From: an uncultured delta proteobacterium
GTDB lineage: Bacteria > Desulfobacterota > Desulfobacteria > Desulfobacterales > B30-G6
Assembly: GCA_963823335.1 (NCBI GenBank)
Contig: CAWGLD010000001.1
Coordinates: 480,001 to 544,000, forward strand
Direction: 5' to 3'
Length of the DNA: 64,000 nt
Shown here: piece by piece, positions 25,143 to 62,735 of the stretch
Position numbering within the stretch: the first letter of the stretch is position 1
Layout of the letters: each line of letters begins with the position of its first letter
Translations under genes and position numbers: made by a program
The notes under the pieces: model-generated
Told to the model about the DNA's origin: nothing
Seen by the model: only the letters and a program-made list of their open reading frames with translations
Databases searched by the model: none

Positions 25143-25315
25143 TAGCCTTCGGCCGTCATTGATGGTCATTAGCCCCGCGGGCGAAATATGTTGTCATTTC
25201 GCCTTCGGCTGTCATTAGCCCTGCGGGCAAAAGATATTGTCATTTCGCCTTCGGCTGTCATTAGCCCTGCGGGCGACATTAGCGCTGCGCGCGACATTTA
25301 TTGTTGCTGATAGCT
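25143..25315. repeat. Mini-hairpin array 1
   Basis: gccttcggc / gccctgcgggc / gcgctgcgcgc units joined by gtcatt or gacatt. Confidence 0.85.
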
Positions 25316-25486
25316 CCTGGCTGAGATTAAAACTTAAAACCTAAAATTTAACACGGTATTGTTTCCCCCTCAAACCTCGGTTAGGCTTTTAGGGGTTTAG
25401 ACTGTAGGCTGTTAGGTGCATTTTGCTCTCAGCTGTCAGCCACCCTCCAACCCTTGTATCCCCCACGAACCCTTGAACCCTCTTTT

Positions 25487-27304
25487 TTACACCCCCCCAA
25501 ACCCCGCATCTTCGATCTCAACGGCCGATCCATCAAAATCCTTTATCGAGACCATTTTACCGTGGGTCACTGGAAGGACCGTATTGATAAAAAACTTGGC
25601 TGACTGGATCTGGCCTTCGTAGAAGCTGACATCCTTTTTCTTGGCACCTTCCTGAAGTTTTTCAGAGGCAACAACGGCGCGCCATAGCAGCATCCACCCC
25701 ATGGTGACGTCCCCCATGACTTCCAGAAACGGAAATGCGTGGGCAAAGGCTTTTTTAAACTCGGGGGTCATGGCTTTCTGACCCAGGTGGAGGGCGGATT
25801 CTCCCAAGGCGTTCATGGCCGTTTCCAGCTTTTCGGCCAGGGGCACCAGGGTTTCTTGTTTCCTGGCCTGCGCGATGGTCTTTTGAATCTTTTCCAGAAA
25901 TTCCATGAAAACCTTTCCCTTTTTCATCCCCAGCTTTCTGGCCAGCAAGTCCATGGCCTGTATGCCATCCGTGCCCTCGTATATGGACGCTATTTTACAG
26001 TCTCTGGCAATCTGTTCAACCGGATACTCCCGGGTGTATCCATAACCGCCATACACCTGGATTGCCTCGATGCACACATCATATCCTCTCTGGGCACAGT
26101 AGGCTTTTACCACTGGTGTCAAAAGATCCGTCATGCCCTGATAGTGTTCCTTTTCTTCCTCATTCTCCGTGTTGGCCAGCTTGTCAAAACAGCGGACCGT
26201 ATAGTAGGCAAAACTGCGCATGCCATCCACATGGGCCTTCATCCAGAGGAGCATGCGTCTCACGTCAGGATGATTGATGATGGCTACCGGGGGCGCATCC
26301 CGTTCGGCGAATTTTTCCAGATCCCGGCCCTGCAGCCGTTCACGGGCATAGTTCACGGCATACAGATAGGCCGTGGTTGCATGGATAAAGGCCTGAAAAC
26401 CGACACCCAGACGGGCCTCGTTCATCATGTGGAACATGATGCGCATGCCATGGTTTTCCTCTCCCAGCAACAGTCCCCGGCAGTTGCCCTTACTCCCCAG
26501 AGACATGCTGCAGGTGGCGGAGGCGTGGATACCCATCTTCTCTTCGATACCGGTGCAGGTCACATCGTTGGGCTCACCCAGGCTGCCGTCCTCATTGACC
26601 CATATTTTTGGCACAATAAAGATGGAAATCCCTTTGGTTCCTGCAGGAGCGCCCTCTATGCGGGCAAGTACCGGGTGAATGATATTTTCCTGGAGATCGT
26701 GTTCACCGTTGGTGATAAATATTTTATCCCCCTTGATCGTGTAGGTGCCATCATCATTCTTCACAGCCGATGTGGTCAAGGCCCCGACATCCGACCCGGC
26801 GTTGGATTCCGTCAGGAGCATGGTTCCTCCCCATACACCGGTATAGAGCTTCTTGAGAAACATGGACTTCTGCAATTCAGTGCCAAAGAGCTCGACCATC
26901 TTGCCGGTGCCATGACCCATACGTGCATAGTTGACCAGCGGATAGTTGCCCCCCACAATGTATTCTGCCACAGCCATGCCGATACTGCTCGGCAATCCCT
27001 GGCCGCCAAGCTCCGGGTCTTCGTTCAACGCGGTCCATTCCCCCTCGATGAGAAGTTTGTGGGGTCTGTGAAAAGACTCGGGGACCTTTACCTGGCCCTT
27101 TTCAAAGCGCACTCCAGTCTGGTCCCCTTCTGCATATGTGGGCAAAAGCTCTTTGATTGCAAAGGTTCGCGCCTCTGAAATAATCATGTCAAAGACTTTC
27201 TTGTTGAGACCTTCGAATCTTTCATAAGCCAACAAGTCCTCAATCTTCATCTGTTCGTAAAGCACAAAATCCATGTCCCGACGATCTGCAATTACCTGTG
27301 CCAT
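25487..27304 (-). CDS. Long acyl-CoA dehydrogenase (~600 aa type)
   Basis: LTESNAGSD, KIFITNG, GGYGY, IYEGT. Confidence 0.95.
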   Translation of the reverse strand: MAQVIADRRDMDFVLYEQMKIEDLLAYERFEGLNKKVFDMIISEARTFAIKELLPTYAEGDQTGVRFEKGQVKVPESFHRPHKLLIEGEWTALNEDPELGGQGLPSSIGMAVAEYIVGGNYPLVNYARMGHGTGKMVELFGTELQKSMFLKKLYTGVWGGTMLLTESNAGSDVGALTTSAVKNDDGTYTIKGDKIFITNGEHDLQENIIHPVLARIEGAPAGTKGISIFIVPKIWVNEDGSLGEPNDVTCTGIEEKMGIHASATCSMSLGSKGNCRGLLLGEENHGMRIMFHMMNEARLGVGFQAFIHATTAYLYAVNYARERLQGRDLEKFAERDAPPVAIINHPDVRRMLLWMKAHVDGMRSFAYYTVRCFDKLANTENEEEKEHYQGMTDLLTPVVKAYCAQRGYDVCIEAIQVYGGYGYTREYPVEQIARDCKIASIYEGTDGIQAMDLLARKLGMKKGKVFMEFLEKIQKTIAQARKQETLVPLAEKLETAMNALGESALHLGQKAMTPEFKKAFAHAFPFLEVMGDVTMGWMLLWRAVVASEKLQEGAKKKDVSFYEGQIQSAKFFINTVLPVTHGKMVSIKDFDGSAVEIEDAGFGGV

Positions 27305-27400
27305 TCTTTTTTATCTCCTTTCACTTATTTAAAACTTCTGATATTCTTCTCTACATATGATTGGATTAAACAATGTTCGAGAACATCTAAACCTGTTGCT

Positions 27401-27570
27401 GTCATTTATGGTCACTAGCCCTTTGGGCGACATTAGCGCTGCGCGCGTCATTTGTTCTACCGAACGTCAGTTGCCCTGCGGACGACATTAGCGCTGCGCG
27501 CGTCATTCATTGTTGCTGATAGTTGTTTGCTCCTGGCCGAACCTAAAACTTAAAACCTAACACCTAACCC
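27401..27570. repeat. Mini-hairpin array 2 plus heptamer run
   Basis: Same units and ttgttgctgatag tail as array 1; (cctaaaa/cttaaaa)n. Confidence 0.8.
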
Positions 27571-27575
27571 GTCCA

Positions 27576-29135
27576 TTAAAATTTGGTCGGCCAGTTGGCC
27601 AGTCGATGCCCGCCAATACCATTGTTCCGCACACCCCGGCTGATTTTCAGGGCCCGACTTATATAATTCCGTGTCTCCCGGGGATCGATCACATCGTGAA
27701 TATAATGCATACCGGCAGCTCCGTAGGGAGACGCATCATCCACCATCTGCTGAACCAGCTTCTCCCACTCCTTCTTGTCACGCTCCGTGGCGGGGATCTT
27801 GCCACCGAAGACCACATTGGCAGCTATTTCCGGGCTCACGAAACTCATTTCCGCCGTGGGCCAGGCCACGATAAAATTGGTGCCACACCCCGATCCGGCC
27901 ATATTCCAGAAAGCCATACCATATGTTTTCCTGACGATGACGGAAATTTTCGGAACCGTTACCAACCCCAGAGCGTTCATGTAGTTCATCACCCTGGCCG
28001 CCACACGGTTTCTTTCGGCTGCTTTTCCCACTAAAAAGCCTGGTGTGTCGTGAAAGAACACCAGGGGAATATTGAACGAATCACACAGGCATAGAAAGCT
28101 GATGACCTTGTCGATGCCGTCCGTGTCCATGGCACCGGCATTGACAAAGGGTTGATTGGCAACAACACCCACCACATTCCCCTTGATTCTGGCGAGGGCG
28201 GTGATGACATTTTTTCCAAAATCGGGTTTAATGGGAAAGAGACTTTGCCGGTCGAAAACAGCATTCAAAATCCGGTGCATGTCATAGGCCCGATTTCGTT
28301 TTTGAGGCAGGCTTTCTAAAATATTTTCAGCTTCTTCGGATGGATCGAATTTCTCCCGACGAGGTGGTGCTTCCTCATTGTGCTGTGGCATATAGCCCAA
28401 AAACTGCCGAATGATTCTGAAACAGTCGTCTTCGGTTTCGGCAATGCGGTCTGCCATACCGGTGATCTCTCCGTGAACCTTTGAACCCCCCAGTTCCTCG
28501 TCGGTAACGGACTCGCTCAGGGCAAGCTCCAGGATTCTTGGTCCCGAAACCCCCATGGCGCTCCCCTTGACTTGCACCACAAAATCGGACAGGCAGGCCA
28601 TCCAGGTGGGCATGCCATAGCATTCCCCCATGACGGCGGTAATCATGGGTGTTTTCCGGACCCGGCTCATGATTTGAAGGTAGGTGTCAAAGCCGCCGCC
28701 CCCGAAGGATGCAAGGCCCTTTGACCCCATGATATCCGGCATTCTGGCGCCACCTGCTTCCCCGAGATAGATCACTGGATACCCGTATTGCGCTGCCAGT
28801 TGTTTCAATTCACCTTCTTTGCGGCCTGCTACGCGGCTCGAGGTGGCAGCCAGCACGGAAAAATCATTGGACAGGATGCCCACCGTACGGCCATCGATGG
28901 TGCCATACCCACCAATTTTGCTGTCCGCCGGAGTCCTGTCCTCCATTCCCGGCACGTCGGAATGATTGAACATGCCCACCTCGAGAAAAGAACCCGGGTC
29001 GAGAAGACCCTGGATACGTTCCCTGGCGTTGAGCCGCCCCTTGGCATGCTGCTTGTCGATCTTTTCCCTGCCACCCATTTCCAGCGCCCGGGCTCTTCTG
29101 TTCTCCAGATCCTGCAGTTCCTTTTCAAAAGACAT
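27576..29135 (-). CDS. Acyl-CoA carboxyltransferase/decarboxylase subunit
   Basis: NARERI, EAGGARM, DTPGFLVG, DVIDPRETR. Confidence 0.9.
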   Translation of the reverse strand: MSFEKELQDLENRRARALEMGGREKIDKQHAKGRLNARERIQGLLDPGSFLEVGMFNHSDVPGMEDRTPADSKIGGYGTIDGRTVGILSNDFSVLAATSSRVAGRKEGELKQLAAQYGYPVIYLGEAGGARMPDIMGSKGLASFGGGGFDTYLQIMSRVRKTPMITAVMGECYGMPTWMACLSDFVVQVKGSAMGVSGPRILELALSESVTDEELGGSKVHGEITGMADRIAETEDDCFRIIRQFLGYMPQHNEEAPPRREKFDPSEEAENILESLPQKRNRAYDMHRILNAVFDRQSLFPIKPDFGKNVITALARIKGNVVGVVANQPFVNAGAMDTDGIDKVISFLCLCDSFNIPLVFFHDTPGFLVGKAAERNRVAARVMNYMNALGLVTVPKISVIVRKTYGMAFWNMAGSGCGTNFIVAWPTAEMSFVSPEIAANVVFGGKIPATERDKKEWEKLVQQMVDDASPYGAAGMHYIHDVIDPRETRNYISRALKISRGVRNNGIGGHRLANWPTKF

Positions 29136-29207
29136 ATCCGTGATTCTCCTATCGTTCTACCCACAATCATAACGAGAGTAACAAATAACAGAGTCTGCGT
29201 TGCCCAT

Positions 29208-29305
29208 GTCATTAGCCCTTCGGGCGTGATTTGTCCTTCGGACGACATTAGCGCTGCGCGCGTCATTTATTGTTGTTGATAGCTGTTCGCTGAACCTAAA
29301 ACCTA
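29208..29305. repeat. Mini-hairpin array 3
   Basis: gcccttcgggc, gtccttcggac, gcgctgcgcgc plus tail. Confidence 0.8.
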
Positions 29306-29359
29306 TTCTGATGATGCGCAGAAATGACATGTCTCTCTCAAGCCCTTCTATGCCGTGCA

Positions 29360-30250
29360 TTATGCGTCCTCTTCACCGTAGGGCAAGCGCTTCCCGTCTT
29401 TGGTATAGCGGTAAAAACCCTTTCCAGCCTTTTTCCCCAGACGCCCCTGGGCAATCATCTTCAACAGGAGGTCCGATTTCGTCACCAGATTCTCTTCCCC
29501 CAGCTCCGCCAGGGATTGACCCACCAGGGCAAAGGTATCCAGGCCGGCATTGTCGGCGACTTCAAAGGGCCCCACATTCCAGCCATACCCCAGTCGCATG
29601 CCGGCATCCACATCTTCCGGACTGACAATACCGTCCGATACCAGGTCCACGGCTTCCCGGAAAGCCGCCGAGAAAATACGGTTCATCACAAAACCGGGGA
29701 TGTCCCGGTTGACACGCACCGGTGTTTTCCCAAGGGAATTGACAAAGTCAACCCCTGCTTCAAACACGTTGTCGGCCGTCTGTTCCCCTTTTACGACCTC
29801 CACCAGTCCCATGAAGGGTACCGGTCCAAAAAAATGAAGACCCAGCATGCGCTCAGGCCGGTCGAGATGTGCGGCCATACGGGTGATGGGTATTGAGGAG
29901 GTGTTGGTGGCCAGCGGGGTTGTAACGGGGATTTCTTTCTCCAGGGCCTTGAAAAGATCGATCTTGAGCGTCTCTAACTCCAGGACTGCCTCGATAATCC
30001 AGTCTGCCTCCGCCGCAGCCGACAGATCGGTTCCATAGCTGAGACGACTGAGGATTTTATCGGGAGCTTCCTCAAGAAGCCCTTTCTCCGTCAGTTTGCT
30101 GACCGACCATTGCAAGCCCTTTTCCGCCTTACCCAGAGCCTCCGGACTAACATCGCTCAGGTGAACCCGGTATCCACTCTGGGCACACACCTGGGCGATC
30201 CCGGCACCCATAAATCCTGCCCCGACGACCAAAACGTTTTGCTGCTTCAT
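29360..30250 (-). CDS. 3-hydroxyacyl-CoA (3-hydroxybutyryl-CoA type) dehydrogenase
   Basis: GAGFMG, TNTSSI, HFFGPVP, PGFVMNR. Confidence 0.93.
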   Translation of the reverse strand: MKQQNVLVVGAGFMGAGIAQVCAQSGYRVHLSDVSPEALGKAEKGLQWSVSKLTEKGLLEEAPDKILSRLSYGTDLSAAAEADWIIEAVLELETLKIDLFKALEKEIPVTTPLATNTSSIPITRMAAHLDRPERMLGLHFFGPVPFMGLVEVVKGEQTADNVFEAGVDFVNSLGKTPVRVNRDIPGFVMNRIFSAAFREAVDLVSDGIVSPEDVDAGMRLGYGWNVGPFEVADNAGLDTFALVGQSLAELGEENLVTKSDLLLKMIAQGRLGKKAGKGFYRYTKDGKRLPYGEEDA

Positions 30251-30341
30251 CTTTTCTCCTTTGACCGATACGGACCCGCCAAGACACCATTTTTAGCAGG
30301 TCCCCGGGTTCATAATAATCCGGCACTAATTATACCCTTTA

Positions 30342-30589
30342 ACTCAACTTTCGGTTTTCACCATCGATAGAGCGAAATGGGTGATCCAATGGCGATTTGC
30401 GGTGTTTGAGGCGTTTAGGGATCCTTACATCAGCGCATGACAATGAAAATCCAATATGAAAACCCGGTCAGTTGAAAGCTATGCCTGTTTAACCATATGG
30501 CCGGCGCTGGTGTTAGGAACCCTTACGGCGAGTTCGCAAAGCGCCAGGGGATTATTCATTTCGTGTTCGCTGAACCCCGAAAGTTGGGT
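30342..30589. mobile_element. ~250 bp MITE-like element, copy 1
   Basis: TIR caactttcgg/ccgaaagttg; closely similar copy at 63423..63674. Confidence 0.8.
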
Positions 30590-30655
30590 CTGTAATTTTT
30601 ATACTGTTTGTCAAAACAACGTTCCGAAACTGCTTAGGCAAATAGCGTCAAACAA

Positions 30656-31723
30656 CTAAAGCGTGGAGCGCTCGATGACATTCATGGCCGCTTTTTCCAA
30701 TATACCCACCACATAGCCCATTTTCTTAAATCGCGGGTCCTGGGTCTGCCCGTGATAATAACGATAGTAGATCTGCTGAACGATCACTGCCAGCTTGAAA
30801 AAGCCGAAACAGAGATAAAAATCGTAGTGATGAATGGTGCGGCCGGACAGGCGCTCATAGAGCGCCACCAGTTCTCTTCGTTTCAGCGCCCCTTCGGCAT
30901 TGGTGGGAACCGAACGCATCAGCTGCATTTCCAGGGGATCCCCGGCTTCGACCCAGTATGCCAGAGTACCACCCAGATCCATCAACGGGTCACCCAGGGT
31001 GGTCATTTCCCAGTCCAGAACACCGATGATGTTCAAGGGGTTTTCAGGATCCAGCACCACATTGTCGAATTTGAAATCGTTGTGGATCAGACAGGGCACG
31101 TCCGTATCCAATGGCATTTTGTCCTTGAGCCAGCACATGACCACTTCGGCCTTCGGCACATCAGGCGTGCGGGCAGCCCGGTAACGCCCGCTCCAGCCGG
31201 TCACCTGACGTTCCACGTATCCTTCGGGTTTGCCCAACGATTCCAGACCGATTTCCCGGTAGTCAACACTGTGCAGCTCATAAAGAACCTTGAACAGGTT
31301 TTCGCACAGACGCGTCATGTCCCCGGGGCTCAGCCCCAAGGATTCCGGGATATCCCTTCGCAATACAATGCCCCTGATCCGTTCCATGACATAAAACGAA
31401 CACCCCATCACCTGGGGGTCTTCGGTGTAGGCCAACGGGCGAGGACAGTAGGGGAATACCGGCCCAAGGGCCTTTAACACCCTGTACTCCCTACCCATGT
31501 CATGAGCGGTTTTAGCCTTGGTCCCCAGGGGTGGCCGCCGCAACACCATTTCCCTTTCACCCACCGTGACCAGATAGGTCAGGTTGGAGGCGCCGCTGGG
31601 AAACTGCTGGATCGTCATTGCCCCATCAAGCCCGGTAATCACATCCCGCAGAAACGCTTCCACTTTCCGGGTATCGAGCTCTTCGCCCTGTCTTACTTCG
31701 GTTGCTTCGTCCATCTGTTGCAC
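30656..31723 (-). CDS. APH-fold phosphotransferase (ACAD10/11 kinase domain, LvaA-like)
   Basis: GASNLTY, LRRPP, AHDMGRE, HNDFKFDN, DWEM. Confidence 0.9.
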   Translation of the reverse strand: MQQMDEATEVRQGEELDTRKVEAFLRDVITGLDGAMTIQQFPSGASNLTYLVTVGEREMVLRRPPLGTKAKTAHDMGREYRVLKALGPVFPYCPRPLAYTEDPQVMGCSFYVMERIRGIVLRRDIPESLGLSPGDMTRLCENLFKVLYELHSVDYREIGLESLGKPEGYVERQVTGWSGRYRAARTPDVPKAEVVMCWLKDKMPLDTDVPCLIHNDFKFDNVVLDPENPLNIIGVLDWEMTTLGDPLMDLGGTLAYWVEAGDPLEMQLMRSVPTNAEGALKRRELVALYERLSGRTIHHYDFYLCFGFFKLAVIVQQIYYRYYHGQTQDPRFKKMGYVVGILEKAAMNVIERSTL

Positions 31724-31836
31724 TTTTACCTATGAATATAGAAAAAGAAAAAAACTGTCACGAAAGCACGAAAATGATCTTTTTCGTGTTTTCGCGATGA
31801 AGATATTCCCCTGGCCGCTAAATCAGAACCGGGCAG

Positions 31837-33042
31837 TTATTTTACGGTCTTACCTTCATACTCTTTTAAGATTCTGCGGGCCACGGACACCTTGTGAACC
31901 TCGTCAGCCCCGTCATAAATCCTGGCTGCGCGCTCGTGACGGTAGAAAAAGGAGATGATCGTGTCATCTGTCATACCCAACCCGCCGTGCACCTGCAAAG
32001 CCCGGTCAATCACCTTCTGCATGGTGTTGGCCACCATGAATTTGATCAGGGAAATATCCTGACGGGCCTCTTTGATTCCCAGGTTCTCGATGGTCCAGGC
32101 CGTGTGGAGCACCATCAGTCGGGCAGACCGGATTTCCGCCGCACTCTCTGCAATCCAGGACTGAATGATCTGTTTGCTGGCCAGTGTCTTCCCGGGAGCG
32201 ATCACCCGGGTCATGGCCCGGTGGCACATCAGATCAAAGACCCGGTTGCAGATACCGATCCAGCGCATGCAGTGATGGATCCGGCCCGGCCCGAGCCTGT
32301 CCTGGGCAATGACAAACCCGTGCCCTTCAGGGCCGAGGAGATTTTTCTGAGGCACCCGGCACGATTGATACAGGATCTCGGCATGGCTGAAATAGCCTTC
32401 TCCGGCATGTCCCATGACCGGAATGTTTCTGACGTGATTGAAACCCGGTGTGTCCGTGGGCACGATGATCATGCTGGCCCGCATATAGGGTGATGCATCT
32501 GGATTTGTATTGGCCATGACTATGGCGAATTTTGCACCGTCAGCAGAAGAGGTGTACCATTTGTGACCATTGATCACATAGTCGTCACCGTCTTTTACCG
32601 CAGTGGTATCCATCATGACCGGGTTCGAGCCGGGCAGGTCGACTTCGGTCATGGAAAAACAGGACCGGATCTGACCATCCACCAGCGGCCTGAGCCAGGT
32701 TTCCTTCTGCTCATCCGTGCCGTACTGGTGAAGGATCTCGATATTCCCGGCATCCGGTGCCTGGCACCCGAAAACCAGAAAACCCAGCATGGTCCCACCC
32801 AGAACTTCTGATACCAGACCATGTTCCACCAGATTAAGCCCCATGCCCCCGAATTCCTTGGGGTGGTTGGGTGCCCACAGCTCCATCTGCTTTACCATTT
32901 TCTGTTTTTCCGCAATAACCGGCAACAGGCGGTTGGTGTCGCTGCTTAAAAATTCCGGTTCCAGGGGAATGAGCTCTTTTTCAACAAACTCTTTCATCAT
33001 ACCGAGTATGGTCTGCATTTTTTCAGATATGTTAAAGTCCAT
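31837..33042 (-). CDS. Acyl-CoA dehydrogenase, ACAD10/11/LvaC type
   Basis: CQAPDAGNIE, RLGPGRIHHCMR, RIYDGADEVH. Confidence 0.92.
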   Translation of the reverse strand: MDFNISEKMQTILGMMKEFVEKELIPLEPEFLSSDTNRLLPVIAEKQKMVKQMELWAPNHPKEFGGMGLNLVEHGLVSEVLGGTMLGFLVFGCQAPDAGNIEILHQYGTDEQKETWLRPLVDGQIRSCFSMTEVDLPGSNPVMMDTTAVKDGDDYVINGHKWYTSSADGAKFAIVMANTNPDASPYMRASMIIVPTDTPGFNHVRNIPVMGHAGEGYFSHAEILYQSCRVPQKNLLGPEGHGFVIAQDRLGPGRIHHCMRWIGICNRVFDLMCHRAMTRVIAPGKTLASKQIIQSWIAESAAEIRSARLMVLHTAWTIENLGIKEARQDISLIKFMVANTMQKVIDRALQVHGGLGMTDDTIISFFYRHERAARIYDGADEVHKVSVARRILKEYEGKTVK

Positions 33043-33150
33043 TGTGCCTCCCTTTTTGTTGGAAATGAATCAGTTGAAGTATGCAATTTGAAATTGTTTC
33101 ACAATCGATAGAGGCTTCCAGCCTGATTTAATAGAACACGCAACCCCGAT

Positions 33151-33861: not shown

Positions 33862-33891
33862 CAGAGTCGTTCTTAATAGGCTTCCGGAGCA

Positions 33892-34248: not shown

Positions 34249-34301
34249 GGCACCTGCACTTTGAGTCGTGTGTGTCGGTTTTGGATATTTCAACTGATAA
34301 T

Positions 34302-34317
34302 TCAAATATCATGCCAA
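34302..34317 (-). promoter_or_regulatory. Putative sigma54 -24/-12 promoter
   Basis: TTGGCATGATATTTGA (GG-N10-GA, one mismatch at -12). Confidence 0.6.
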
Positions 34318-34406
34318 TCTATTCTGAATGCGTCATATTTGCAATCGTTTGATATAATTATTCTATTTTGATATGATCTTCATCTGTGAGCCTAGTGCCC
34401 TCCGGA

Positions 34407-39283: not shown

Positions 39284-39302
39284 AATTCCACCTTTGGTTG
39301 TT

Positions 39303-39351
39303 AGCGATAAGCTGTAAGCCATAAGCCGCTTATCGCTTACAGCTTATCGCT
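39303..39351. repeat. Heptamer-built hairpin
   Basis: Perfect 17 bp IR agcgataagctgtaagc / gcttacagcttatcgct. Confidence 0.75.
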
Positions 39352-39525
39352 CAAATCTTAAACCTTCTAAATCCCAGACCCTAAAAGCCCATTTCTTTAT
39401 TCTAAGATCCTTTTATGCTGGGATGCTTGGATGCCGGGATGCCGCTTTCCGTTTACAGCTGTTTGCTACCCTCGAACCCTTGTATTCCCCTCGGACCCTC
39501 AGACCCTTTTCTTCACCCTCGAACC

Positions 39526-40059
39526 CTATAGATGAATTGCCCCGCTCACCGGTGCCTCCCAGTCGAGCTGCTGATCTTCGGCGATCCGGGTGTCGAATTT
39601 CTGCGAAATATCCTGGGGCATGGCCATTGCTTTGCGCAATTTCAGATCCGCATGAGTCCCCAGAACTTCCAGGACGGCTGCCAGTTTGTTAGCGCTTTCG
39701 TTGATCATGAAATTCATAAAATGAAATCGTTTCTCGTTGCGTCCCAGCAGACGGATACGCATGGCCACGGTTTCCCCGACTTTAACTTCAGAAAAATACT
39801 GGATAAAGTGTTTCAGTGCAAACACACCCATCTGTTTCCGGATAAAATAACTCTCGTCCAGACCATGGGATATAAACAACTTCCAGACCGAGGTGTCGAA
39901 AAGGGCCATATACCAGCGGACATTCATGTGCCCCATGGCATCCAGATAGGTTTTCGGGATGGTTTCACGGTGATATAAGGGCAGCATCGCCAGCTTGTCC
40001 AATGGCACCAGACACCCTTTTGTTTTTTCCCAGATACCACATTCTGACGTGCTTTCCAT
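39526..40059 (-). CDS. Hotdog-fold thioesterase
   Basis: DAMGHMNV..Y. Confidence 0.85.
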   Translation of the reverse strand: MESTSECGIWEKTKGCLVPLDKLAMLPLYHRETIPKTYLDAMGHMNVRWYMALFDTSVWKLFISHGLDESYFIRKQMGVFALKHFIQYFSEVKVGETVAMRIRLLGRNEKRFHFMNFMINESANKLAAVLEVLGTHADLKLRKAMAMPQDISQKFDTRIAEDQQLDWEAPVSGAIHL

Positions 40060-48855: not shown

Positions 48856-49030
48856 GACATTTGCCTTTCAGGCGTCATTTGTTCTATCGAACGACATTTG
48901 CGCTACGCGCGACATTTCGCCTTCGGCTGTCATTAGCCCTTCGGGCGAGATTAGCGCTGCGCGCGAGATTTATTGTTGCTCATAGCTGATAGCTGGAAGC
49001 TACGATAAATGACACGAAGCGAATGACATT
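48856..49030. repeat. Mini-hairpin array 4
   Basis: Six hairpin units joined by gacatt/gtcatt/gagatt, plus tail. Confidence 0.85.
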
Positions 49031-49072
49031 TCTTCCCCTCCAACCCTTGTATCCCCCTCGAACCCTTGTACC

Positions 49073-50750: not shown

Positions 50751-50768
50751 TCATTATCACCTGCCTGA

Positions 50769-53865: not shown

Positions 53866-54013
53866 AATCCGATTTCCTATATAGGGGTTGTCAGAAAAAC
53901 GTTCCGATTGAGGACTTTTTTTCTGCTACAACCCCTTATGCCGCCATCCTATTTTCGGAACATTATTATGACAAGCGGTATAAACTCAGCTTTCTATAAC
54001 CATCTCTTCTGTT

Positions 54014-55656: not shown

Positions 55657-55828
55657 CCCGTTTAAAGAATCACGTTTTGCATATTGCCGCGCCGGCCAAG
55701 ATAATTACCCGTACTTTAACTATAAGCTATCTCAAAAATGTCTTTTGGCCGAAATGTTTATAAAAAGGGGAACCCGGTTTCCCTCCATGCAAAAACTGAC
55801 TGGGGGAAACCGGAGATATCAAGAAATA

Positions 55829-56677
55829 CTACAGCTTGGGAATGAGGTCAGTGCCGTAAAACTGCATGGAAAGAGCTACCAGTGTTCCGTCTTCATACAT
55901 GGAAGAGAGAACCTCGTTCAGTTTTTTTATCAAAGACTCACTATCGGGCCGGCTCTTGTCGAGTGCAACACTCAGGTGTTCATAAAAGGCAGGCTCACCC
56001 AGCATCTTTATGGGGCAGCCGCCGCCACAGCCTGATTTCTCGGCTTCAAAAATGGTCGGTTTGGCGGTGAGCACTGCGTCAAGCCGGACACCATCACCCA
56101 GGGCTATATCTTCTATGGCATTGGCATCTGTCGGATAGGTAGTGACTTTACTCGCTTTCCAATCCGGATACTCAATCTTGACGCCCACCAGTTCAAGGTC
56201 TTTATTAAGATATCGGTCATAGGTGGTTTCGGTTCCTACACCGATGCGCTTGCCGGCCAGGTCCTTGATGCTTTTGATGCTGGTATTGTCTTTGTGTACG
56301 GCAAACTGGGCGGGTGTGCTGTAATAGGGCATGGTGAAATGGAGTGCCTTCACGCGCTCCGCCGTGGGGGTCATGGAGCCGATGGAGATATCCCAGCGTT
56401 TGCCCCAATTGCCGGAAGTGATAAGATCCCAGTCCGGTGTTACGAATTCAACCTTTACACCCAGGCGTTTGGCAACCTCCTTGGCCACGCTGATATCAAA
56501 ACCTTCCAGTTCACCCTTGTCGTTGAGAAAACTCTGGGGGGCATAGTTGGCATCTGTGGAGACCTTTATAACCCCGGCCGCCATTATCTCATCCAGAACG
56601 GAGCCGGCAAAAGCACTGCCAGCGCCTAAAATTACAAAACTGACGGCCAACAATCCCACAAACAATCGTTTTTTCAT
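55829..56677 (-). CDS. Polar amino-acid ABC substrate-binding protein
   Basis: Signal peptide, YAPQSF, GFDI, SMTPTAER. Confidence 0.92.
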   Translation of the reverse strand: MKKRLFVGLLAVSFVILGAGSAFAGSVLDEIMAAGVIKVSTDANYAPQSFLNDKGELEGFDISVAKEVAKRLGVKVEFVTPDWDLITSGNWGKRWDISIGSMTPTAERVKALHFTMPYYSTPAQFAVHKDNTSIKSIKDLAGKRIGVGTETTYDRYLNKDLELVGVKIEYPDWKASKVTTYPTDANAIEDIALGDGVRLDAVLTAKPTIFEAEKSGCGGGCPIKMLGEPAFYEHLSVALDKSRPDSESLIKKLNEVLSSMYEDGTLVALSMQFYGTDLIPKL

Positions 56678-57047
56678 TTAGCATCTCCTTTTGATAAATT
56701 AATAATAACCCCCCCGGGCCGGAGGAGCGCCTAAAAACAAGACATGTGGCCCAATTTCGCCTGACGGTAATGACCCGTAACATGGGGTAACCGACAGGAC
56801 TGCAAATCACACATTATCAAAATATTTTTTCTCCCTCTCAGAGAGGGTTTGTTTACAGTAGTATGTTTTGTGCAGAAACCAGTTAAAAAAGTCGTGGCCC
56901 AAGCGATCGCGCCCTGGGGTCACAAGTCATCGATTCTTCACTGGTAGAGAGATGATCCAAAATATAAGAGCTTGCTTTTTTCTAAATCGAGTATGCCAAA
57001 ACGATACATGTGCGTCAACAGCTTATTGAAGTTATGAAACGCTCTAC

Positions 57048-57539
57048 TCAGGTGATTTTTTTGGTCATGAACAATTGATCCCCGGCTTCTTGAGCCAGGA
57101 ATGAATCCTCGAAGCCATTTCTGCGGTAGAGTCTGCGGGCGGTGGTATTGTTCTCCTGAACTTCAAGGGTTATCTTGCAACAGCCCATGTCACGGGCAAT
57201 GGTTTCAATTTCTCTCAGGAAAGCCCTGCCAATCCCCTGACCCCTGAAATCTTCCAGCACCATAAAATCATGGATGTTTATCAGTGGTTTTGCATGAAAC
57301 GTCGAAAATCCCAAAAAACAGATACTCATGCCCACATAGCCTTTGTCAATTCTGGCCAGCAAGACAACGGCATTTTGCATGCGCTCCAAACCAGGCACCA
57401 ATGCATGCAGCACATGACCTTTGATGGCTTTTCGAAAGCCCAGCAAGCCCTTTGCATAGGCATTCAACAAATAGGGTATGGCAGACCGTTGCGCGGGGTC
57501 CGTGTAGTCCGCCCGAAGGATATCAACGTTACGTGTCAC
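57048..57539 (-). CDS. GNAT N-acetyltransferase
   Basis: INIHD, RGQGIG, LEVQENN..A..LY..GF. Confidence 0.9.
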   Translation of the reverse strand: MTRNVDILRADYTDPAQRSAIPYLLNAYAKGLLGFRKAIKGHVLHALVPGLERMQNAVVLLARIDKGYVGMSICFLGFSTFHAKPLINIHDFMVLEDFRGQGIGRAFLREIETIARDMGCCKITLEVQENNTTARRLYRRNGFEDSFLAQEAGDQLFMTKKIT

Positions 57540-57574
57540 CAGGTATCTCCTTTGATTGTTTATATTTTTGCTAT

Positions 57575-57633
57575 CCCCGTGACATGCGAAGCACTGCCGC
57601 AGGCAGAACCCACAGAGAATGTGTTCGTTGCTG
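57575..57633 (-). repeat. Inverted partial copy of the 59979 element
   Basis: Reverse complement reads ggttctgcc..ggcagtgcttcgcatg..cgggg. Confidence 0.7.
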
Positions 57634-57637
57634 CGCT

Positions 57638-58477
57638 TCAGGCACCACTGAATCGCGGGTCCCGTTTTTCCATACGCGCATTCAGGGCTTCCATAAAATC
57701 AGAAGTTGCAAACCCACGGTTCAATCCCTCGTTCTCCAGATCAAGGGCCCGCGACACGGCCTCGATCATGGGTTTGTGTAGAATTTCTTTGGAGAGACGA
57801 ACGGCCAGTCCCGCCCCCTGCGGTGGAATCAGCTTGCAGGTCTGCGCTCTCGCAAACCGCAGAAGTTCACTGTGGGGCAGCACCTGGTTGACCAGCCCCA
57901 GGTCATACAGTCTCTCGGCGCTCAGCCGCTCTCCAAAAAACATGATCTCTTTGGCCCGCTGCAAACCGATCAGGCGTGGCAAAAGATAACTCGAAGCCAG
58001 CTCCGGCACCAGACCCAGGCGTATGAAGGGCAGCTTTACCCAGGCATGCTCGGACATATAGATCAGATCGGCACACGCCAGGGGTATGGTAAAGCCTCCA
58101 CCGATGGCCAGACCGTTGATGGCCGCTACCATCGGTTTGGTAAATTTCCAGAGCTTGAGACAGAGACGTTTCTGGGCAAGGTCGGTCAGATCCACCTCCT
58201 GCCTGGTCTCCTCGTCCAGAGCTTCCAGTTCGGCAAAGTCGAGATACATACCACTGCTGAAAGCTTCCTGAGCCGGGTCTGTCTTGTCTGCTGATACCGC
58301 ACCTGTCAATATCATGGCCGACGCTGTTTCGTCGTTTTCCACAGCCTCTACGGCACGGTAGAGATCCAAAAGCATCACAATGCCCAGGGCATTCTTGATC
58401 TCGGGTCTGTTCAACGTCACCTGAACGATACCGTTTTCAGGATCTTTTTCATAGCGTATCTGTTTGAACTCCATCAT
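57638..58477 (-). CDS. Crotonase family, likely enoyl-CoA isomerase type
   Basis: GGGFTI, LPFIRLGLVPE. Confidence 0.85.
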   Translation of the reverse strand: MMEFKQIRYEKDPENGIVQVTLNRPEIKNALGIVMLLDLYRAVEAVENDETASAMILTGAVSADKTDPAQEAFSSGMYLDFAELEALDEETRQEVDLTDLAQKRLCLKLWKFTKPMVAAINGLAIGGGFTIPLACADLIYMSEHAWVKLPFIRLGLVPELASSYLLPRLIGLQRAKEIMFFGERLSAERLYDLGLVNQVLPHSELLRFARAQTCKLIPPQGAGLAVRLSKEILHKPMIEAVSRALDLENEGLNRGFATSDFMEALNARMEKRDPRFSGA

Positions 58478-58484
58478 GCCTCCT

Positions 58485-59915
58485 TTATCCCAAGCGTGAC
58501 AGGCTCTTGCGGGCAACTTCCCAGAGGCCCTCGGCCAGGGTCGGATGCGCATGGATCGTCTCCGCCAGATCCCGGGTGGTAATTCCCATTTTGATTGCCA
58601 GAACCGCCTCCGCAATCAATTCCGTGGCATGCTCTCCAATGATATGCACACCCAGAACACGACCAGAGGGCTTCTCGGTTATCATCTTGACCTGGCCGGA
58701 CAGTTCACCTTTGGCCTGGGACATCCCCAGTTCCCTGAAAAGAAATGTGTCTGCAGTATAATCGATTCCCGCGGTCTTTGTTTCACTTTCAGTGAGTCCC
58801 ACGTCGGCCACCTCCGGAAAGGTATAAATTCCGGACGGTACAGCCCCATAGTCCATCCGACGTTGACCACCCAGACAGTTTTCCACGGCCACGAGACCTT
58901 CCATGGACGCCACATGTGCCAGCATGATTTTCTGCGGTCCCAAGATATCCCCAATGGCGTAGACATCTGCAACCTGGGTCTCCATCTTCTGGTTGGCAGG
59001 AACCCAGCCCTTCTTGTCCAGGCCGATCCCCATGCGCGCAAGACCGATGCCATTGGAATTGGGCGCACGACCGACGGTCAGAAAAATTGCATCCGCCTGG
59101 ACTTGACGGTCCTGAGAGTATGCAGGGAGAGGTTGTTCGTAAAACGGCGATGGGCCGAGGGTAACCATGACCCTCCCGTCCGGCGTTGACTGAAAATCGG
59201 CAATGGTCGTCTTCAAGTGAACCGTGATCTTGTCTTTTTTCATTTCCCTTAGCAGGGTCTTGCTCATGTCCACGTCTACGCTGGGCAGGGGTATCAGGCG
59301 CTCCATGGCCTCCACGACAATCACTTCGGAGCCGAATTGTTTGAAAATGGAGGCAAACTCGGCACCGATTACACCGCCACCCAGAATAATGATTTTAGCA
59401 GGTATGTTTTCCAGTTTCAAAACATCATCCGAGGACAAGATGTGCTTACCGTCGAAAGAAAGGTTCGGCAGACCCTGGGGATGGGAGCCTGTTGCCAGTA
59501 TGAGCTTGTCCCCCACCACTTCGTGGGAGTTGCCCTCCGGATCCACCACCCGGACAAGGTGCGGGTCGACAACTTCCCCGGTACCTTTGATCAGGGTCAC
59601 CTTCCCGTCCTTGAAGGCTTTTTCGATACCGCTCACCAGGGTTGCCACCACCTTGTCCTTGCGGGCCATGATGGCCGTAAAATCGGGTCGGATCTCCCCT
59701 GAAAAATCGATGCCGTAGGTCTTGAGTCGTTCCGCTTTCCTGACCGCCTCCGCCGAACTCTTCAACGTTTTGGTGGGAATACAACCCCAGTTCAGGCAGG
59801 TTCCCCCGAGATTGTCATTCTCGACAACCGTCACCCGGGCACCCAGTTCCGCTCCTCTCAAGGCGGCCACATACCCACCTGGCCCGCCACCTATAATGGT
59901 AATCCGTATGGACAT
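58485..59915 (-). CDS. lpdA: Dihydrolipoyl dehydrogenase
   Basis: GGGPGG, GTCLNWGCIP, HAHPTLAE. Confidence 0.95.
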   Translation of the reverse strand: MSIRITIIGGGPGGYVAALRGAELGARVTVVENDNLGGTCLNWGCIPTKTLKSSAEAVRKAERLKTYGIDFSGEIRPDFTAIMARKDKVVATLVSGIEKAFKDGKVTLIKGTGEVVDPHLVRVVDPEGNSHEVVGDKLILATGSHPQGLPNLSFDGKHILSSDDVLKLENIPAKIIILGGGVIGAEFASIFKQFGSEVIVVEAMERLIPLPSVDVDMSKTLLREMKKDKITVHLKTTIADFQSTPDGRVMVTLGPSPFYEQPLPAYSQDRQVQADAIFLTVGRAPNSNGIGLARMGIGLDKKGWVPANQKMETQVADVYAIGDILGPQKIMLAHVASMEGLVAVENCLGGQRRMDYGAVPSGIYTFPEVADVGLTESETKTAGIDYTADTFLFRELGMSQAKGELSGQVKMITEKPSGRVLGVHIIGEHATELIAEAVLAIKMGITTRDLAETIHAHPTLAEGLWEVARKSLSRLG

Positions 59916-59978
59916 GTCTCATCCCTTTCCAAAAATTGAACCTCATCCAGCGCTGGGAAGAGCACTGAATGAATTTCA

Positions 59979-60124
59979 ATTGAACCGAAACAGCGAGCGC
60001 ATTCCCCGTAGGTTCTGCCGTCCGGCAGTGCTTCGCATGCTGCGGGGGTTAGCGAGCGAATCTAAATTAGACAGAATTCCTTACGGTCGAAGATTCCTCG
60101 TAGCTTGCTGCGAGGTTCTTCAAT
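59979..60124 (+). mobile_element. Non-autonomous element with IS200/IS605-like subterminal hairpins
   Basis: Ends ...cctcgtagcttgctgcgagg-ttcttcaa; several related copies in the window. Confidence 0.6.
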
Positions 60125-60331
60125 ATAGAAAAACCAAGCCTTTCTGTCAAAATAAAATCGTTACAATGCTGCTCCTGGGACCGAAAGGTTATTTTGACAA
60201 ATGCTATATGCGGAAGAACGGATCGGAGAATCCCTATCTTATTGACATATCCTGAGCTTTTTATATATTATCTTTTTTTGGTCACGCACTGAAAAGAACG
60301 TTGTTCACCAACACTAACAGGAGGAGACATT

Positions 60332-61123
60332 ATGAAAAAAGTAGGGATTCTTTTGATCGTTTTGGCGCTGGTAATGGCCGCAGCTGCTGTTCAGGCCAAG
60401 GACTGGAAGGTTGTACGCATCGGTGTGGAAGGTGCCTACCCCCCCTTCAGCTGGGTGACACCCGATGGGGAGCTGAAAGGATTTGACATTGATATCGCCA
60501 AGGCCCTCGTGGAAGCCATGGGTGCCGAGGTCAAGCTGGTGCCCCAGGACTGGGACGGCATCATTCCGGCCCTGCTGGCAAAAAAATACGACGCCATTAT
60601 CGCCTCCATGTCCATCACCGAAGAGCGCAAGCAAAAGGTTGCGTTTACCAACAAGTACTACAACACACCTGCCAAGTTCGTGTGCAAGAAGGGCGCCATG
60701 AAGGACTTTACCCGGGCAGAGGTCGCCCAGGCCACCAAAGGCAAGAGTATCGGTGTTCAGCGTGCCACCATCCACGACAATTTTATCACCGATAACGGCG
60801 GCGAAGGCGTTTCCATTAAGCGCTACGGCACCCAGGACGACGCTTATCTGGATCTGGTGGCCGGCCGTGTGGACATGCTCCTGGCAGACAGTGTCGCCAT
60901 CGACGACGGTTTTTTACAGAAGCCGGAAGGGCAGGATTTCCAGTTCATCGGGCCGGACCTGTCTGAAAAGAAATACTTCGGTGAAGGCGCCGGGATCGCC
61001 ATCCGCAAGGAAGACACGGACCTGGTGGAGCTGTTCAACGAAGCCATCGTGAAAATCCGCCAGGACGGCACCTATAAAATGATCCAGGACAAGTACTTCC
61101 AATTCAACGTTTACGGCGAATAA
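60332..61123 (+). CDS. Lys/Arg/Orn/His-type ABC substrate-binding protein
   Basis: EGAYPPF, WDGIIPAL, SMSITEER, FGEGAGIA. Confidence 0.92.
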   Translation: MKKVGILLIVLALVMAAAAVQAKDWKVVRIGVEGAYPPFSWVTPDGELKGFDIDIAKALVEAMGAEVKLVPQDWDGIIPALLAKKYDAIIASMSITEERKQKVAFTNKYYNTPAKFVCKKGAMKDFTRAEVAQATKGKSIGVQRATIHDNFITDNGGEGVSIKRYGTQDDAYLDLVAGRVDMLLADSVAIDDGFLQKPEGQDFQFIGPDLSEKKYFGEGAGIAIRKEDTDLVELFNEAIVKIRQDGTYKMIQDKYFQFNVYGE

Positions 61124-61199
61124 CTTCGTTTTACGAATTTATGTGACGCGACTTCGTCGCTATTTTGGAAACCAAGCGAGTATCAATTTCTTTCAACCT

Positions 61200-61230
61200 A
61201 ACGGGGGAGAATTTCTCCCCCGTTTATCTT
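61200..61230 (+). terminator. Probable intrinsic terminator
   Basis: aacgggggaga / tctcccccgtt stem followed by T-rich run. Confidence 0.65.
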
Positions 61231-61316
61231 GAGTAAGCAGGACAGCTATAAGCATTGAGCCATAAGCTGTTAGCATGCTTATAGCTTAATGCTTACTGCT
61301 TAAAAAAGGCCAAACA

Positions 61317-62459
61317 TTGACCACCAAAACAATTGAAAAACAGATCCTCCCGGTCTCCAGCATGGGAAACCAACGCGCATTGACGATTATCCGTTACGGC
61401 AACGGCTCTGCCGGGAAGAAAGCCTATGTCCAGGCAGGGCTGCACGCCGACGAGGCTCCCGGGTATCTCGTCATGCACCACCTGATCAACCTGCTCGATG
61501 CGGAGGATAGCGCCGGAACCATCCCAGGGGAAATCCTGCTGGTTCCAGTGGCCAACCCCATCGGGACGGGCCAGTGGCGCGATGAAGTCCTGAGAGGTCG
61601 CTTCGATTATTTCGACAACACAAATTTTAATCGGAAGCACCTGGACATTACCGATAAAGTAGCCGAAAAAATCTCGAACACCCTGTCCGATTCACCGGAT
61701 CGAAACAAGGCCATTATCCGTCAGGCCATGGCCGACGTACTCCAGGGCTTATCACCCATCGATGAATCGGCCCGGCTCAAGCACCTGCTCCTGTCCCTTT
61801 CCTTTGATGCGGATATCGTTCTCGATCTCCATTGTGACTACCAGGCCGTTACCCATGTCTACATGGGCAGCCCTCTCTGGCCGGAGGCCTCGGACCTGTC
61901 CGCCCAGATCGGATCGGAGGCGACGCTTCTAGCCAAGGTCTCCGGCGACAACCCCTATGACGAGGCCTGCAGCAGGATCTGGTGGGAACTGGCTGAAAAA
62001 TTTTCCGCCTTCCCTATACCGTTGGCCTGCCTGGCCGCCACCGTCGAACTCAGAGGAATCTCAGACGTCTCACACGCACTTGCATCCCGTGATGCGCAAA
62101 ATATCTTTCACTTTTTACAGAGACGGGGCCTACTTTCCGGGCAGACCGCGGAACTGCCGCCCCTGCGAAACCCTGCAACACCCCTGCGGGGGGTAGCGCA
62201 TCTCAAAGCGACAGCGCCGGGTGTGGTGGTCTATTTCAAGAAACCCGGGGACAGGGTCAAAAAGGGAGATGTCGTTGCTGAAATCGTGAATCCCCTGGAA
62301 GAGGATCCGCACAGCCGGGTCACCCGCGCAAGAAGCGATATCGATGGTCTTCTCATCTCGGTCAATATCGACCGCTTTGCCAGACCTGGCCGCCTCCTGG
62401 CCAAAATTGCAGGAAAGGAGCCCTTGACGGACAAGGGGGAAAATCTGCTTACTTTGTAA
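61317..62459 (+). CDS. Succinylglutamate desuccinylase/aspartoacylase (M14) family
   Basis: LHADE, ANPIG, NFNR, DLHCD, TVELRG. Confidence 0.9.
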   Translation: MTTKTIEKQILPVSSMGNQRALTIIRYGNGSAGKKAYVQAGLHADEAPGYLVMHHLINLLDAEDSAGTIPGEILLVPVANPIGTGQWRDEVLRGRFDYFDNTNFNRKHLDITDKVAEKISNTLSDSPDRNKAIIRQAMADVLQGLSPIDESARLKHLLLSLSFDADIVLDLHCDYQAVTHVYMGSPLWPEASDLSAQIGSEATLLAKVSGDNPYDEACSRIWWELAEKFSAFPIPLACLAATVELRGISDVSHALASRDAQNIFHFLQRRGLLSGQTAELPPLRNPATPLRGVAHLKATAPGVVVYFKKPGDRVKKGDVVAEIVNPLEEDPHSRVTRARSDIDGLLISVNIDRFARPGRLLAKIAGKEPLTDKGENLLTL

Positions 62460-62573
62460 TAGTTAGGGTTCAAGGGGCCGAGGGGGATACAAGGGTTGGA
62501 GGGTGGCTGACAGCAGCATCCCAGCGTCCCAGCATTCAAGGAGTGAAGGTGTGAAGGGTTTGAGGGAAAGAGA

Positions 62574-62735
62574 TGTCATTTGCTTCGCGTCATTTGTGGT
62601 CATTTACTTCGTGTCATTAATCGCAGCTGTGGGCATTCAGCTATAGACAACAATAAATGACAGCCGAAGGCGAAATGACGCGCGTAGCGCAAATGTCGTC
62701 CGGCAGGACAAATGACGCACGAAGTGTAAATCACC
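62574..62735. repeat. Mini-hairpin array 5 (inverted orientation)
   Basis: aaatgac-gccgaaggc, gcgcgtagcgc, gtccggcaggac. Confidence 0.8.

Follow-up and report, generated by a model that had tools for sequence, protein, structure and literature searches.

A 64,000-nucleotide stretch from the genome of an uncultured Desulfobacterales bacterium (C1:480001-544000 of a 4.37-Mb draft in 11 contigs with ~49% G+C; here called the window) contains five intergenic arrays in which hairpins of 11-12 nt alternate with an (A/T)AATGAC/AATGTC linker, behind a 22-nt leader resembling GCTATCAGCAACAATAAATGAC. These arrays are probably the arms of a small cassette that resembles the intervening sequences (IVS) of 23S rRNA and carries a gene of the PF05635 family; the five in the window, together with most of the 53 found in the genome, would be gene-less derivatives that keep mainly the downstream arm. 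Word and hairpin repeats between bacterial genes have been on record for decades, with neither origin nor partner protein known, and the link between this mini-hairpin array family and a PF05635 cassette is what the present analysis adds. In the literature covered, which excluded subscription journals, no description was found of PF05635 genes lying between word or hairpin arrays.

The first-pass annotation of the window had listed five arrays with a shared leader; all five were found at the positions that it gave, and the leader was found at each of them. Three separate neighbouring genes in a fatty-acid oxidation cluster that runs on the minus strand (3-hydroxyacyl-CoA dehydrogenase, carboxyltransferase, acyl-CoA dehydrogenase and a fadB-like gene), one (array 4) between the outer-membrane and membrane-fusion genes of a resistance-nodulation-division (RND) efflux operon, and one (array 5) behind a plus-strand AstE/AspA-like gene. 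The flip claimed at 62.6 kb is real, since array 5 is on the opposite strand and follows its plus-strand upstream gene. The five arrays themselves contain no gene, and the unit scan found no sixth array of at least two units in the window. A match to an already described repeat family had been considered as well; Rfam gave zero matches across the whole window at gathering thresholds, and none was found in the literature within the coverage given above.

The partner that the first-pass annotation supposed to be encoded elsewhere has a candidate in a PF05635 four-helix-bundle gene. At C1:744700-745410, two divergent mini-hairpin arrays, with inner ends reading ACAATNAAT(G/A)AC, surround an interior of ~400 bp that holds a PF05635 gene with frameshifts and internal stop codons, which matches the profile at 33.6 bits (cut-off 33.8 bits). 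The orthologous master locus, between aminotransferase-like and epimerase-like genes, is present in 9/14 relatives of the same family. The gene is intact in six of them (G002, G004, G007, G009, G012 and G013), where it encodes 118-120 aa and matches PF05635 at 87.6-95.7 bits, and a series of decay is seen in others, with a truncated gene in G005 and a 50-bp remnant in G008. A small gene flanked by the arrays, which had been proposed as a thing to look for, therefore exists between two inverted arrays, degraded in the present genome and intact in these six relatives. No genome was found to have more than one copy of this gene lineage, the closest paralogue being 44-48% identical, and the intact products match the solved pentameric four-helix-bundle protein XCC0516 (2GSC, E 3.9e-10).

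The master gene ends in ..AAC AAT AAA TGA C, which equals the leader core over 13/13 nt, and its TGA stop lies inside the first AATGAC word. Over the full 22 nt, the leader aligns with the gene ends of G000 (the present genome) and G002. Read in this way, the leader is the 3' end of a PF05635 four-helix-bundle gene, comprising its last codons, the TGA stop and the inner inverted repeat. In the cassette, the upstream arm ends in GTCATTNATTGT just ahead of the start codon and the downstream inner inverted repeat is ACAATNAATGAC; in two-armed gene-less copies the same two repeats lie ~20 nt apart, the inner end of the short arm matching the upstream inner repeat. Around 13 arrays have such a short inverted arm beyond the leader, made up of 2-bp mini-hairpins (GCGAAGC, ACGAAGT) along with the leader core repeated in inverted form, and arrays 4 and 5 of the window carry these 2-bp mini-hairpins in the same position. 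Because the leader matches the 3' end of the gene and the short arm matches the upstream inner repeat, the two-armed gene-less elements would be cassettes with the interior removed, and the one-armed arrays would keep the last codons of the gene and the downstream arm.

The linker also points to this gene. A scan of one genome per species gave 403 loci encoding relatives of the protein, and flanking words were counted at the best 80 of these 403 (55-99% identity), which come from Bacteroidota, Ignavibacteriota, Calditrichota, Desulfobacterota, Planctomycetota and others. Upstream flanks held 247 copies of GTCAT and downstream flanks 245 of ATGAC, compared with 18 and 16 in the opposite sense, and at least three words on at least one side were present at 49/80 loci compared with 1/80 in the control. 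At many of these best 80 loci the stop codon is inside the word. The words can be plain, as in a Bacteroidota locus (L099) with 10-nt words of the form (N3)AAATGAC, or interleaved with hairpins, since 11/80 loci have at least two cGNAg hairpins in an arm. One locus (L097) has GNA hairpins in both arms, seven on the complement of the upstream arm and four downstream, and in a metagenome-assembled genome (MAG) of Neomarinimicrobiota (L131) an intact gene is accompanied by gcgc, gtcc and gcac units. The other 21 PF05635 matches of the present genome have quite different words in their arms. To judge from these flanks, AATGAC is the repeat word of this particular PF05635 gene lineage, across many phyla.

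The two-unit pattern was also matched nine times in viral sequences. Seven of these matches were coincidental, lying in sequence that resembles transfer-messenger RNA (tmRNA), one was a coding repeat and one was a true array. The latter is on a putative viral contig from IMG/VR (L181, ~1250-1640), where at least 12 AATGACCAATGAC words alternate with GCGNAGC mini-hairpins just upstream of a gene, and no PF05635 gene was found within 1.5 kb of it. The matches in L176, L177, L179, L180, L182, L183 and L184 lie in the apparent tag-coding part of phage-borne tmRNA (AATGACCTTCGAAGA..AATGTCTTTCGTAGG) and do not represent a related repeat.

Within the present genome, the leader (up to four mismatches) occurs 47 times, 46 of them with an array or short arm behind it and one as a chance match. 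The genome-wide search that had been suggested gave 53 clusters of at least two units (189 units), all intergenic by crude gene calls, with compensating stems and mostly GNA loops. Single units were at chance level (337 units in total versus 197 in a dinucleotide shuffle), and the two-linker pattern AATNWCNNNCGNAGNNNWAATNWC gave 124 matches versus 0 in the shuffle. Looser scans (any 3-5 bp hairpin before a linker, or all hairpins of 4 bp and 3 nt) were swamped by background, and loose two-linker units gave 516 matches in the genome, about half of them random; clustered or array-restricted counts were used instead.

Pairing was assessed on units excised by their linkers alone, with no stem assumed, and a perfect 4-bp stem was present in 107/133 of these units compared with 66/2660 shuffled ones. 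The loops (n = 120) comprised 96 GNA, 14 GNNA and 0 TNC. Among 153 units from the 53 arrays, the four stem positions held Watson-Crick pairs in 130, 146, 150 and 145 units, respectively; the outer three positions had three or four pair types each, while the closing pair was C-G in 138/153 units. Several pair types at each outer position indicate that the stem compensation is real. Mismatches at stem positions 1-3 were more often G.T than A.C (10 versus 2 in this genome, 15 versus 5 in loci of relatives), a weak sign that the AATGAC strand is the folding strand. The order of the units is less free than the first-pass annotation, which spoke of shuffling between loci, had supposed: gcgc was the first unit after the leader in 26/43 arrays, and was followed by gtcc in 20/30 cases, and gtcc by gcac in 14/23, so that a preferred gcgc, gtcc, gcac series is seen, with duplications and deletions. 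These are not CRISPR arrays, since the period is 18 nt and the variable part is a hairpin drawn from ~8 recurring types, not a unique spacer.

Only GNA, out of 64 triloops, is reported to form the DNA mini-hairpin, with melting temperatures (Tm) of 70-76 degrees C for GCGNAGC; GNNA loops are reported to form it too, the RNA versions to be much weaker, and standard folding parameters to miss the stability (PMC13037366). In the arrays, 110/120 loops belong to these two types, and the loop spectrum fits the DNA mini-hairpin rule closely. The unusual stability that had been claimed for cGNAg hairpins in DNA agrees with the published loop rule. The likeness to the Hirao mini-hairpins (GCGNAGC/GCGNNAGC) goes beyond the common rule of a GNA or GNNA loop closed by C-G, as GCGNAGC itself is present in the gcgc units and GCGAAGC in the short arm. 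The natural cases mentioned in that account, however, are single hairpins at phage or plasmid priming sites (PMC13037366), whereas the present arrays are runs of 2-8 at ~50 chromosomal sites and are locked to transcription.

The unit pattern was found in 14/14 other genomes of the same family, with 3-238 matches each, and only 0-2 times per genome, which is chance level, when 26 other families of the order were sampled by one genome each, indicating that the array family is confined to one Desulfobacterales family. Match counts were 167, 151, 238, 18, 86, 73, 212, 124 and 127 in genomes that have the gene (intact, degraded or interrupted by a contig end), and 3, 26, 25, 17, 10 and 50 in those that have no gene or only a remnant, suggesting that the presence of the gene goes with a higher array count.

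Unit order was compared across genomes, as had been advised, and the unit series differ at orthologous sites. The gap between the acyl-CoA dehydrogenase and fadB-like genes is 32 nt in G001, a genome of the same genus, and 183-620 nt in six relatives and the present genome, where the last unit is shared and the series differ, G008 having other words only. Of the five genomes compared at element 5, G000, G005 and G007 have it, while G001 and G006 do not. The three units left to G001 in the efflux operon are what a deletion between two AAATGTC linkers could leave. G001 has 3 pattern matches and no copy of the master gene, and since the three-unit remnant persists in its efflux operon, it seems to have lost the array family rather than never having had it. 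The arrays change by gain and loss of units between linkers. The same arrays occur at orthologous sites in independently assembled genomes of relatives and in public runs of several studies.

The arrays are composite with other words, and the differences in presence between species were seen at such composite sites. A GGGTT block beginning at the stop codon upstream regularly precedes them, and some lie enclosed by GGGTT blocks on one side and AACCC blocks on the other. At C3:131572 and C1:1832644, complementary AACCC words stand after the array, as if the array occupied the loop of another element.

The orientation bias claimed for the arrays extends to the whole genome: where the flanking genes share one direction, AATGAC reads along the genes in 31 arrays and against them in 5, while 9 lie between convergent and 8 between divergent genes. 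Relative to the local GC-skew strand the split was 24:29, with no bias, which rules out an explanation by replication strand. The 31:5 and 24:29 counts together indicate that orientation is locked to transcription and not to replication. The 22 PF05635 matches of the genome behave in the same way, 11 running along the genes in same-direction gaps and 1 opposed. Metatranscriptome contigs span from coding sequence into arrays 1 and 3 (X12 records 10 and 15), consistent with co-transcription; stretches without cover and low-support joints were left out of account. Among 14 terminator-like sites in window positions 23000-31000, none (0/14) falls in an array, so far as intrinsic terminators are concerned.

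Metatranscriptome contigs of related strains join across window positions 25142-25386 and 29302-29367, skipping 243 and 64 nt and having 60-82 letters at the shorter side of the joint, which hints at natural length variants of the intergenic repeats.

A full cassette consists of an upstream arm, a promoter-less four-helix-bundle gene of ~119 aa (PF05635) and an inverted downstream arm. Its lineage word is AATGAC, read as GTCATT in the upstream arm, and 11-nt cGNAg hairpins placed between the words, in this Desulfobacterales family and a few other lineages, make up the ~18-nt unit. The leader is the gene end (..N N K stop, with TGA within AATGAC) plus the inner inverted repeat ACAATNAATGAC, and arrays 4 and 5 would have kept the short upstream arm besides the downstream one. 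The cassette has no evident promoter and is co-directional in operons, and its gene may be expressed by read-through from the host operon; such a dependence on read-through transcription would account for the strand lock of gene-carrying and gene-less copies alike. In the transcript of an intact cassette, the arms would pair as a long, IVS-like and processable double-stranded RNA stem. The predicted RNA fold of the intact G007 cassette does pair the arms around the open reading frame (ORF), at -273.9 kcal/mol versus -212.6 +/- 9.4 for shuffles (z -6.5). A copy that lost the gene and one arm would no longer form this stem, and the one-armed leftovers, which could form only local mini-hairpins, would be tolerated and then vary by duplication and deletion between identical linkers. 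The four-helix-bundle protein may recognise its own word array and help to maintain or spread it. PF05635 is the 23S rRNA intervening-sequence protein family, a four-helix bundle, and the cassette protein is related to XCC0516 and to Avd, a protein of diversity-generating retroelements.

Several points weigh against this reading. The dispersed arrays have 4-bp stems (gcgc, gtcc, gcac, gccc, agcc, atcc), while the arms of the master locus have mostly 5-bp stems (gctcc, acgcc, gcgcc), and a protein query found no gene-carrying copy with the dispersed unit types in 15 genomes of the family, so the master that is seen may not be the parent of the dispersed arrays. The unit types of L131 could match by convergence, because few GNNC stems are possible. 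Gene and array count do not always go together, as G009 has an intact gene yet 18 matches, and G014, at 81% completeness, has no gene found yet 50 matches; the genomes compared are related, and the comparison thus lacks independence. Neither terminal repeats nor a target-site duplication nor a clean pair of empty and filled sites was found; the arrays always stand amid other word arrays, and clean insertion sites cannot be defined because of this composite structure. Folding energies of the arrays alone were unremarkable against shuffles (RNA, z -2.3 and -0.9; DNA, z -1.35 for the sense and -1.37 for the antisense strand). The orientation count rests on crude longest-ORF gene calls, and the RNA-library contigs show neither strand nor ends and may contain DNA. 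Finally, PF05635 proteins are not known to have enzymatic activity.

The retention of the downstream arm (31:5) and the DNA loop rule point either to a use in the transcript or to a role in single-stranded DNA, and each of these can be set out as an explanation of its own. The arrays could be host cis-regulatory RNA elements in their own right, with the cassette origin incidental; we consider this possible though rather unlikely, and it would be compatible with the cassette reading as a later co-option. Such a role would suit the co-orientation with genes, the retention of the downstream and not the upstream arm, the end of many arrays 13-80 nt before the next start codon, their persistence at orthologous sites across the genus, the G.T excess at stem positions 1-3 and their inclusion in RNA-library contigs, and a like role has been proposed for TAACTGA heptamer repeats (PMC4679880). 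However, the arrays are dispensable, G001 being without most of them at the same operons (the 32-nt gap), the number and order of units vary freely between species, no terminator-like site or Rfam match falls in the arrays, and GNA and GNNA mini-hairpins are reported to be much less stable as RNA than as DNA (PMC13037366). That last property would favour an action as single-stranded DNA, in which transcription lets the hairpins form on the non-template strand, or a linear or single-stranded intermediate of the cassette bears them at its 3' ends, where they would resist exonucleases or prime synthesis and so be the working ends of the element. The loops follow the published DNA rule with 110/120 GNA or GNNA and 0 TNC (PMC13037366), the GNA strand is the outward-running one in both arms of intact cassettes (7 and 4 hairpins in L097), and the putative viral contig L181 bears a long GCGNAGC/AATGAC array. 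Nevertheless, the outward symmetry follows automatically from inverted-repeat arms, the 24:29 split by GC skew argues against a role at the replication fork, and no excised or circular form was seen; this action, itself compatible with a cassette origin, is in our judgement unlikely.

Repetitive extragenic palindromic (REP) sequences and bacterial interspersed mosaic elements (BIME) are defined by imperfect palindromes of ~20-40 nt with a conserved GTAG-type head, clustered in alternating orientation. The first-pass annotation had proposed a modular REP/BIME-like system, and the description of a modular, dispersed and extragenic family stands, while the identity with REP/BIME does not. It is very improbable that the arrays are repeats of this type maintained by a REP-associated tyrosine transposase (RAYT, an HUH Y1 transposase), as in Escherichia coli and Pseudomonas, with the hairpins as single-stranded DNA substrates of the enzyme. 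The arrays are extragenic, hairpin-forming and dispersed in tens of copies, and the genome has 8 matches to PF01797 (Y1_Tnp), but these do not place the suspected RAYT or HUH nuclease beside the arrays: the distance to an array is 7.2 kb for the closest match and 12-105 kb for the rest, and contig C2 has a match and no array. Moreover, the 11-nt hairpins stand in direct tandem on a 7-nt word and not in inverted pairs, have 4-bp stems and no GTAG head, and are oriented by transcription and not by a replication-related strand. As generally described, REP/BIME and REP doublets that form hairpins (REPIN) with their RAYT are nevertheless alike in being transcribed with operons in tens to hundreds of copies, and REPIN-RAYT systems in having a single-copy, vertically inherited partner gene flanked by repeats, with copy numbers that tend to be lower without the gene; the partner here is a four-helix-bundle protein and not an HUH transposase. 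Chance, low-complexity sequence or an assembly artefact would fit the frequency of single units, which is that of a shuffle, and the draft state of the genome, but hardly the 53 clusters where none is expected, the 124 pattern matches versus 0, or the orthologous arrays in independent assemblies and public runs of several studies, and its probability is negligible.

The closest known system to the PF05635 cassette is the ORF-carrying intervening sequence of 23S rRNA, as in Coxiella burnetii and Leptospira, with its S23p/PF05635 ORF. In each, a short four-helix-bundle ORF with no promoter of its own lies between inverted flanks, which pair with each other in the transcript (a prediction in the present case). 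Both rely on transcription by the host, and their ORFs are prone to decay; the intervening sequence of Coxiella is reported to be cut out by RNase III (PMC4990558). The present elements differ in their location, as all cassette and array copies lie between protein-coding genes and none in a 23S rRNA helix such as helix 25 or 45, in their long flanks of tandem words and mini-hairpins, and in the tens of gene-less, one-armed copies dispersed in the genome. Two-armed copies resemble miniature inverted-repeat transposable elements (MITEs), as these are usually understood, in looking like the cassette with its interior deleted, and their leader and short-arm matches are those of a non-autonomous derivative, with ends homologous to a gene-carrying element. 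In contrast to MITEs, no transposase, outer terminal inverted repeats or target-site duplication were found here, and most copies are one-armed.

G-rich heptamer repeats are said to occur in Xanthomonas and Nostoc. The short tandemly repeated repetitive (STRR) and TAACTGA heptamer repeats of cyanobacteria, Beggiatoaceae and Bacteroidetes are likewise tandem intergenic words of 7-10 nt near start or stop codons, with a patchy distribution (PMC4679880); the abstract of that paper mentions neither a link to a PF05635 gene nor interleaved hairpins, which sets the present arrays apart. In three Melioribacteraceae/Stygiobacter loci (L101, L103 and L104), the PF05635 gene ends in ..AACAACTGAATGAC.., which contains AACTGA, six of the seven bases of the TAACTGA heptamer, and a link between this orphan repeat and a PF05635 lineage is possible.

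A broader proposal, which we put forward as speculation and regard as improbable, is that PF05635 (Avd-like) proteins and word arrays make up a widespread, undescribed class of selfish cassettes, in which each lineage recognises its own word and outward-strand cGNAg hairpins serve as working DNA ends, either exonuclease-resistant or self-priming. If it were true, moving or copying DNA would need no classical transposase, and the orphan heptamer repeats known from several phyla would be footprints of the process. The cassette origin itself would mean that a structured repeat has been followed back, nucleotide for nucleotide, to the ends of a kind of cassette that is known elsewhere from ribosomal RNA alone. 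As the word follows the protein lineage across phyla, there is a testable candidate partner, related to the nucleic-acid-binding Avd of diversity-generating retroelements. The arrays also offer a natural system with the GNA mini-hairpin hundreds of times per genome, where before it was mainly a matter of oligonucleotide chemistry and a few phage or plasmid priming sites. For annotation, they would account for the long and variable intergenic regions of these Desulfobacterales, and may explain why repeat finders or CRISPR screens flag the PF05635 family, which two CRISPR-association screens list near cas loci or arrays (PMC3936711; PMC10910872).

Coordinates and contents of the mini-hairpin elements and adjoining word arrays in the window
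Feature	Position	Strand	Content
Array 1, long (downstream) arm	25143..25292	-	Hairpins of gcgc, gccc and agcc type with cGNAg; AATGAC/AATGTC linkers
Array 1, leader (GCTATCAGCAACAATAAATGTC)	25293..25314	-	Homologous to the end of the PF05635 gene (last codons and stop codon) together with its inner inverted repeat
Other word arrays, from acyl-CoA dehydrogenase stop codon to leader 1	25315..25486	-	GGGTT words, CTAAAAC/GTTTTAG words, AGCT-rich spacers
Array 2, long arm	27401..27501	-	Units gcgc, gtcc, gttc, gcgc, gccc
Array 2, leader	27502..27523	-	
Array 3, long arm	29208..29261	-	Units gcgc, gtcc, gccc
Array 3, leader	29262..29283	-	
Array 4, long arm	48856..48964	-	Units gcgc, gccc, agcc, gcgc, gttc, gcct
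Array 4, leader	48965..48986	-	
Element 4, short inverted (upstream) arm	48987..49030	-	GTCATT words, 2-bp mini-hairpins, inner repeat GTCATTTATCGTAGC
GGGTT-word block, from outer-membrane-protein stop codon to short arm of element 4	49031..49072	-	
Element 5, short inverted (upstream) arm and centre	62575..62639	+	GTCATT words, complements of GCGAAGC and ACGAAGT, AGCT-rich centre
Array 5, leader	62640..62661	+	
Array 5, long arm	62662..62734	+	Units agcc, gcgc, gtcc, gcac; same direction as the upstream AstE/AspA-like gene

Array 1 contains a 46-nt tandem duplication and ends ~17 nt ahead of the start codon of the fadB-like gene at 25126, and the long arm of array 4 reaches the ribosome-binding site of the membrane-fusion-protein gene. 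Blocks of GGGTT(C/G)(G/A)A words stand at or next to the upstream stop codon, directly before mini-hairpin elements, at window positions 25316-25486, 49031-49072 and 62460-62573. They join these elements at a recurring junction (..GAGGGGAAGAAAT/GTCATT), and the junction of the block with the short arm of element 4 recurs at other loci and in relatives.

Five further PF05635 matches of the present genome (G000), all at 67.5 bits, lie at C2:13116-13427, C4:31300-31611, C4:218509-218820, C4:342130-342441 and C7:100459-100770. They share near-identical flanks of GGGATCG/CGATCCC words, over ~100 nt upstream and, in 4/5 of them, ~290 nt downstream, after which the sequences diverge; in the C7 copy, the downstream part is shortened by an internal deletion. 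These copies, which small ttctccc...gggagaa hairpins bound, look like a recently multiplied gene-carrying cassette of another word lineage.

Other intergenic tandem arrays of 7-8 nt words were found in the window at 19524-19560, 39299-39527, 61275-61303 and 63376-63408. Their words are GCTTACA, CGCTTAT, ATGCTGGG, ACCCTCA.., ATGCTTA and TAAGCGA, and they probably belong to the other word families of this genome.

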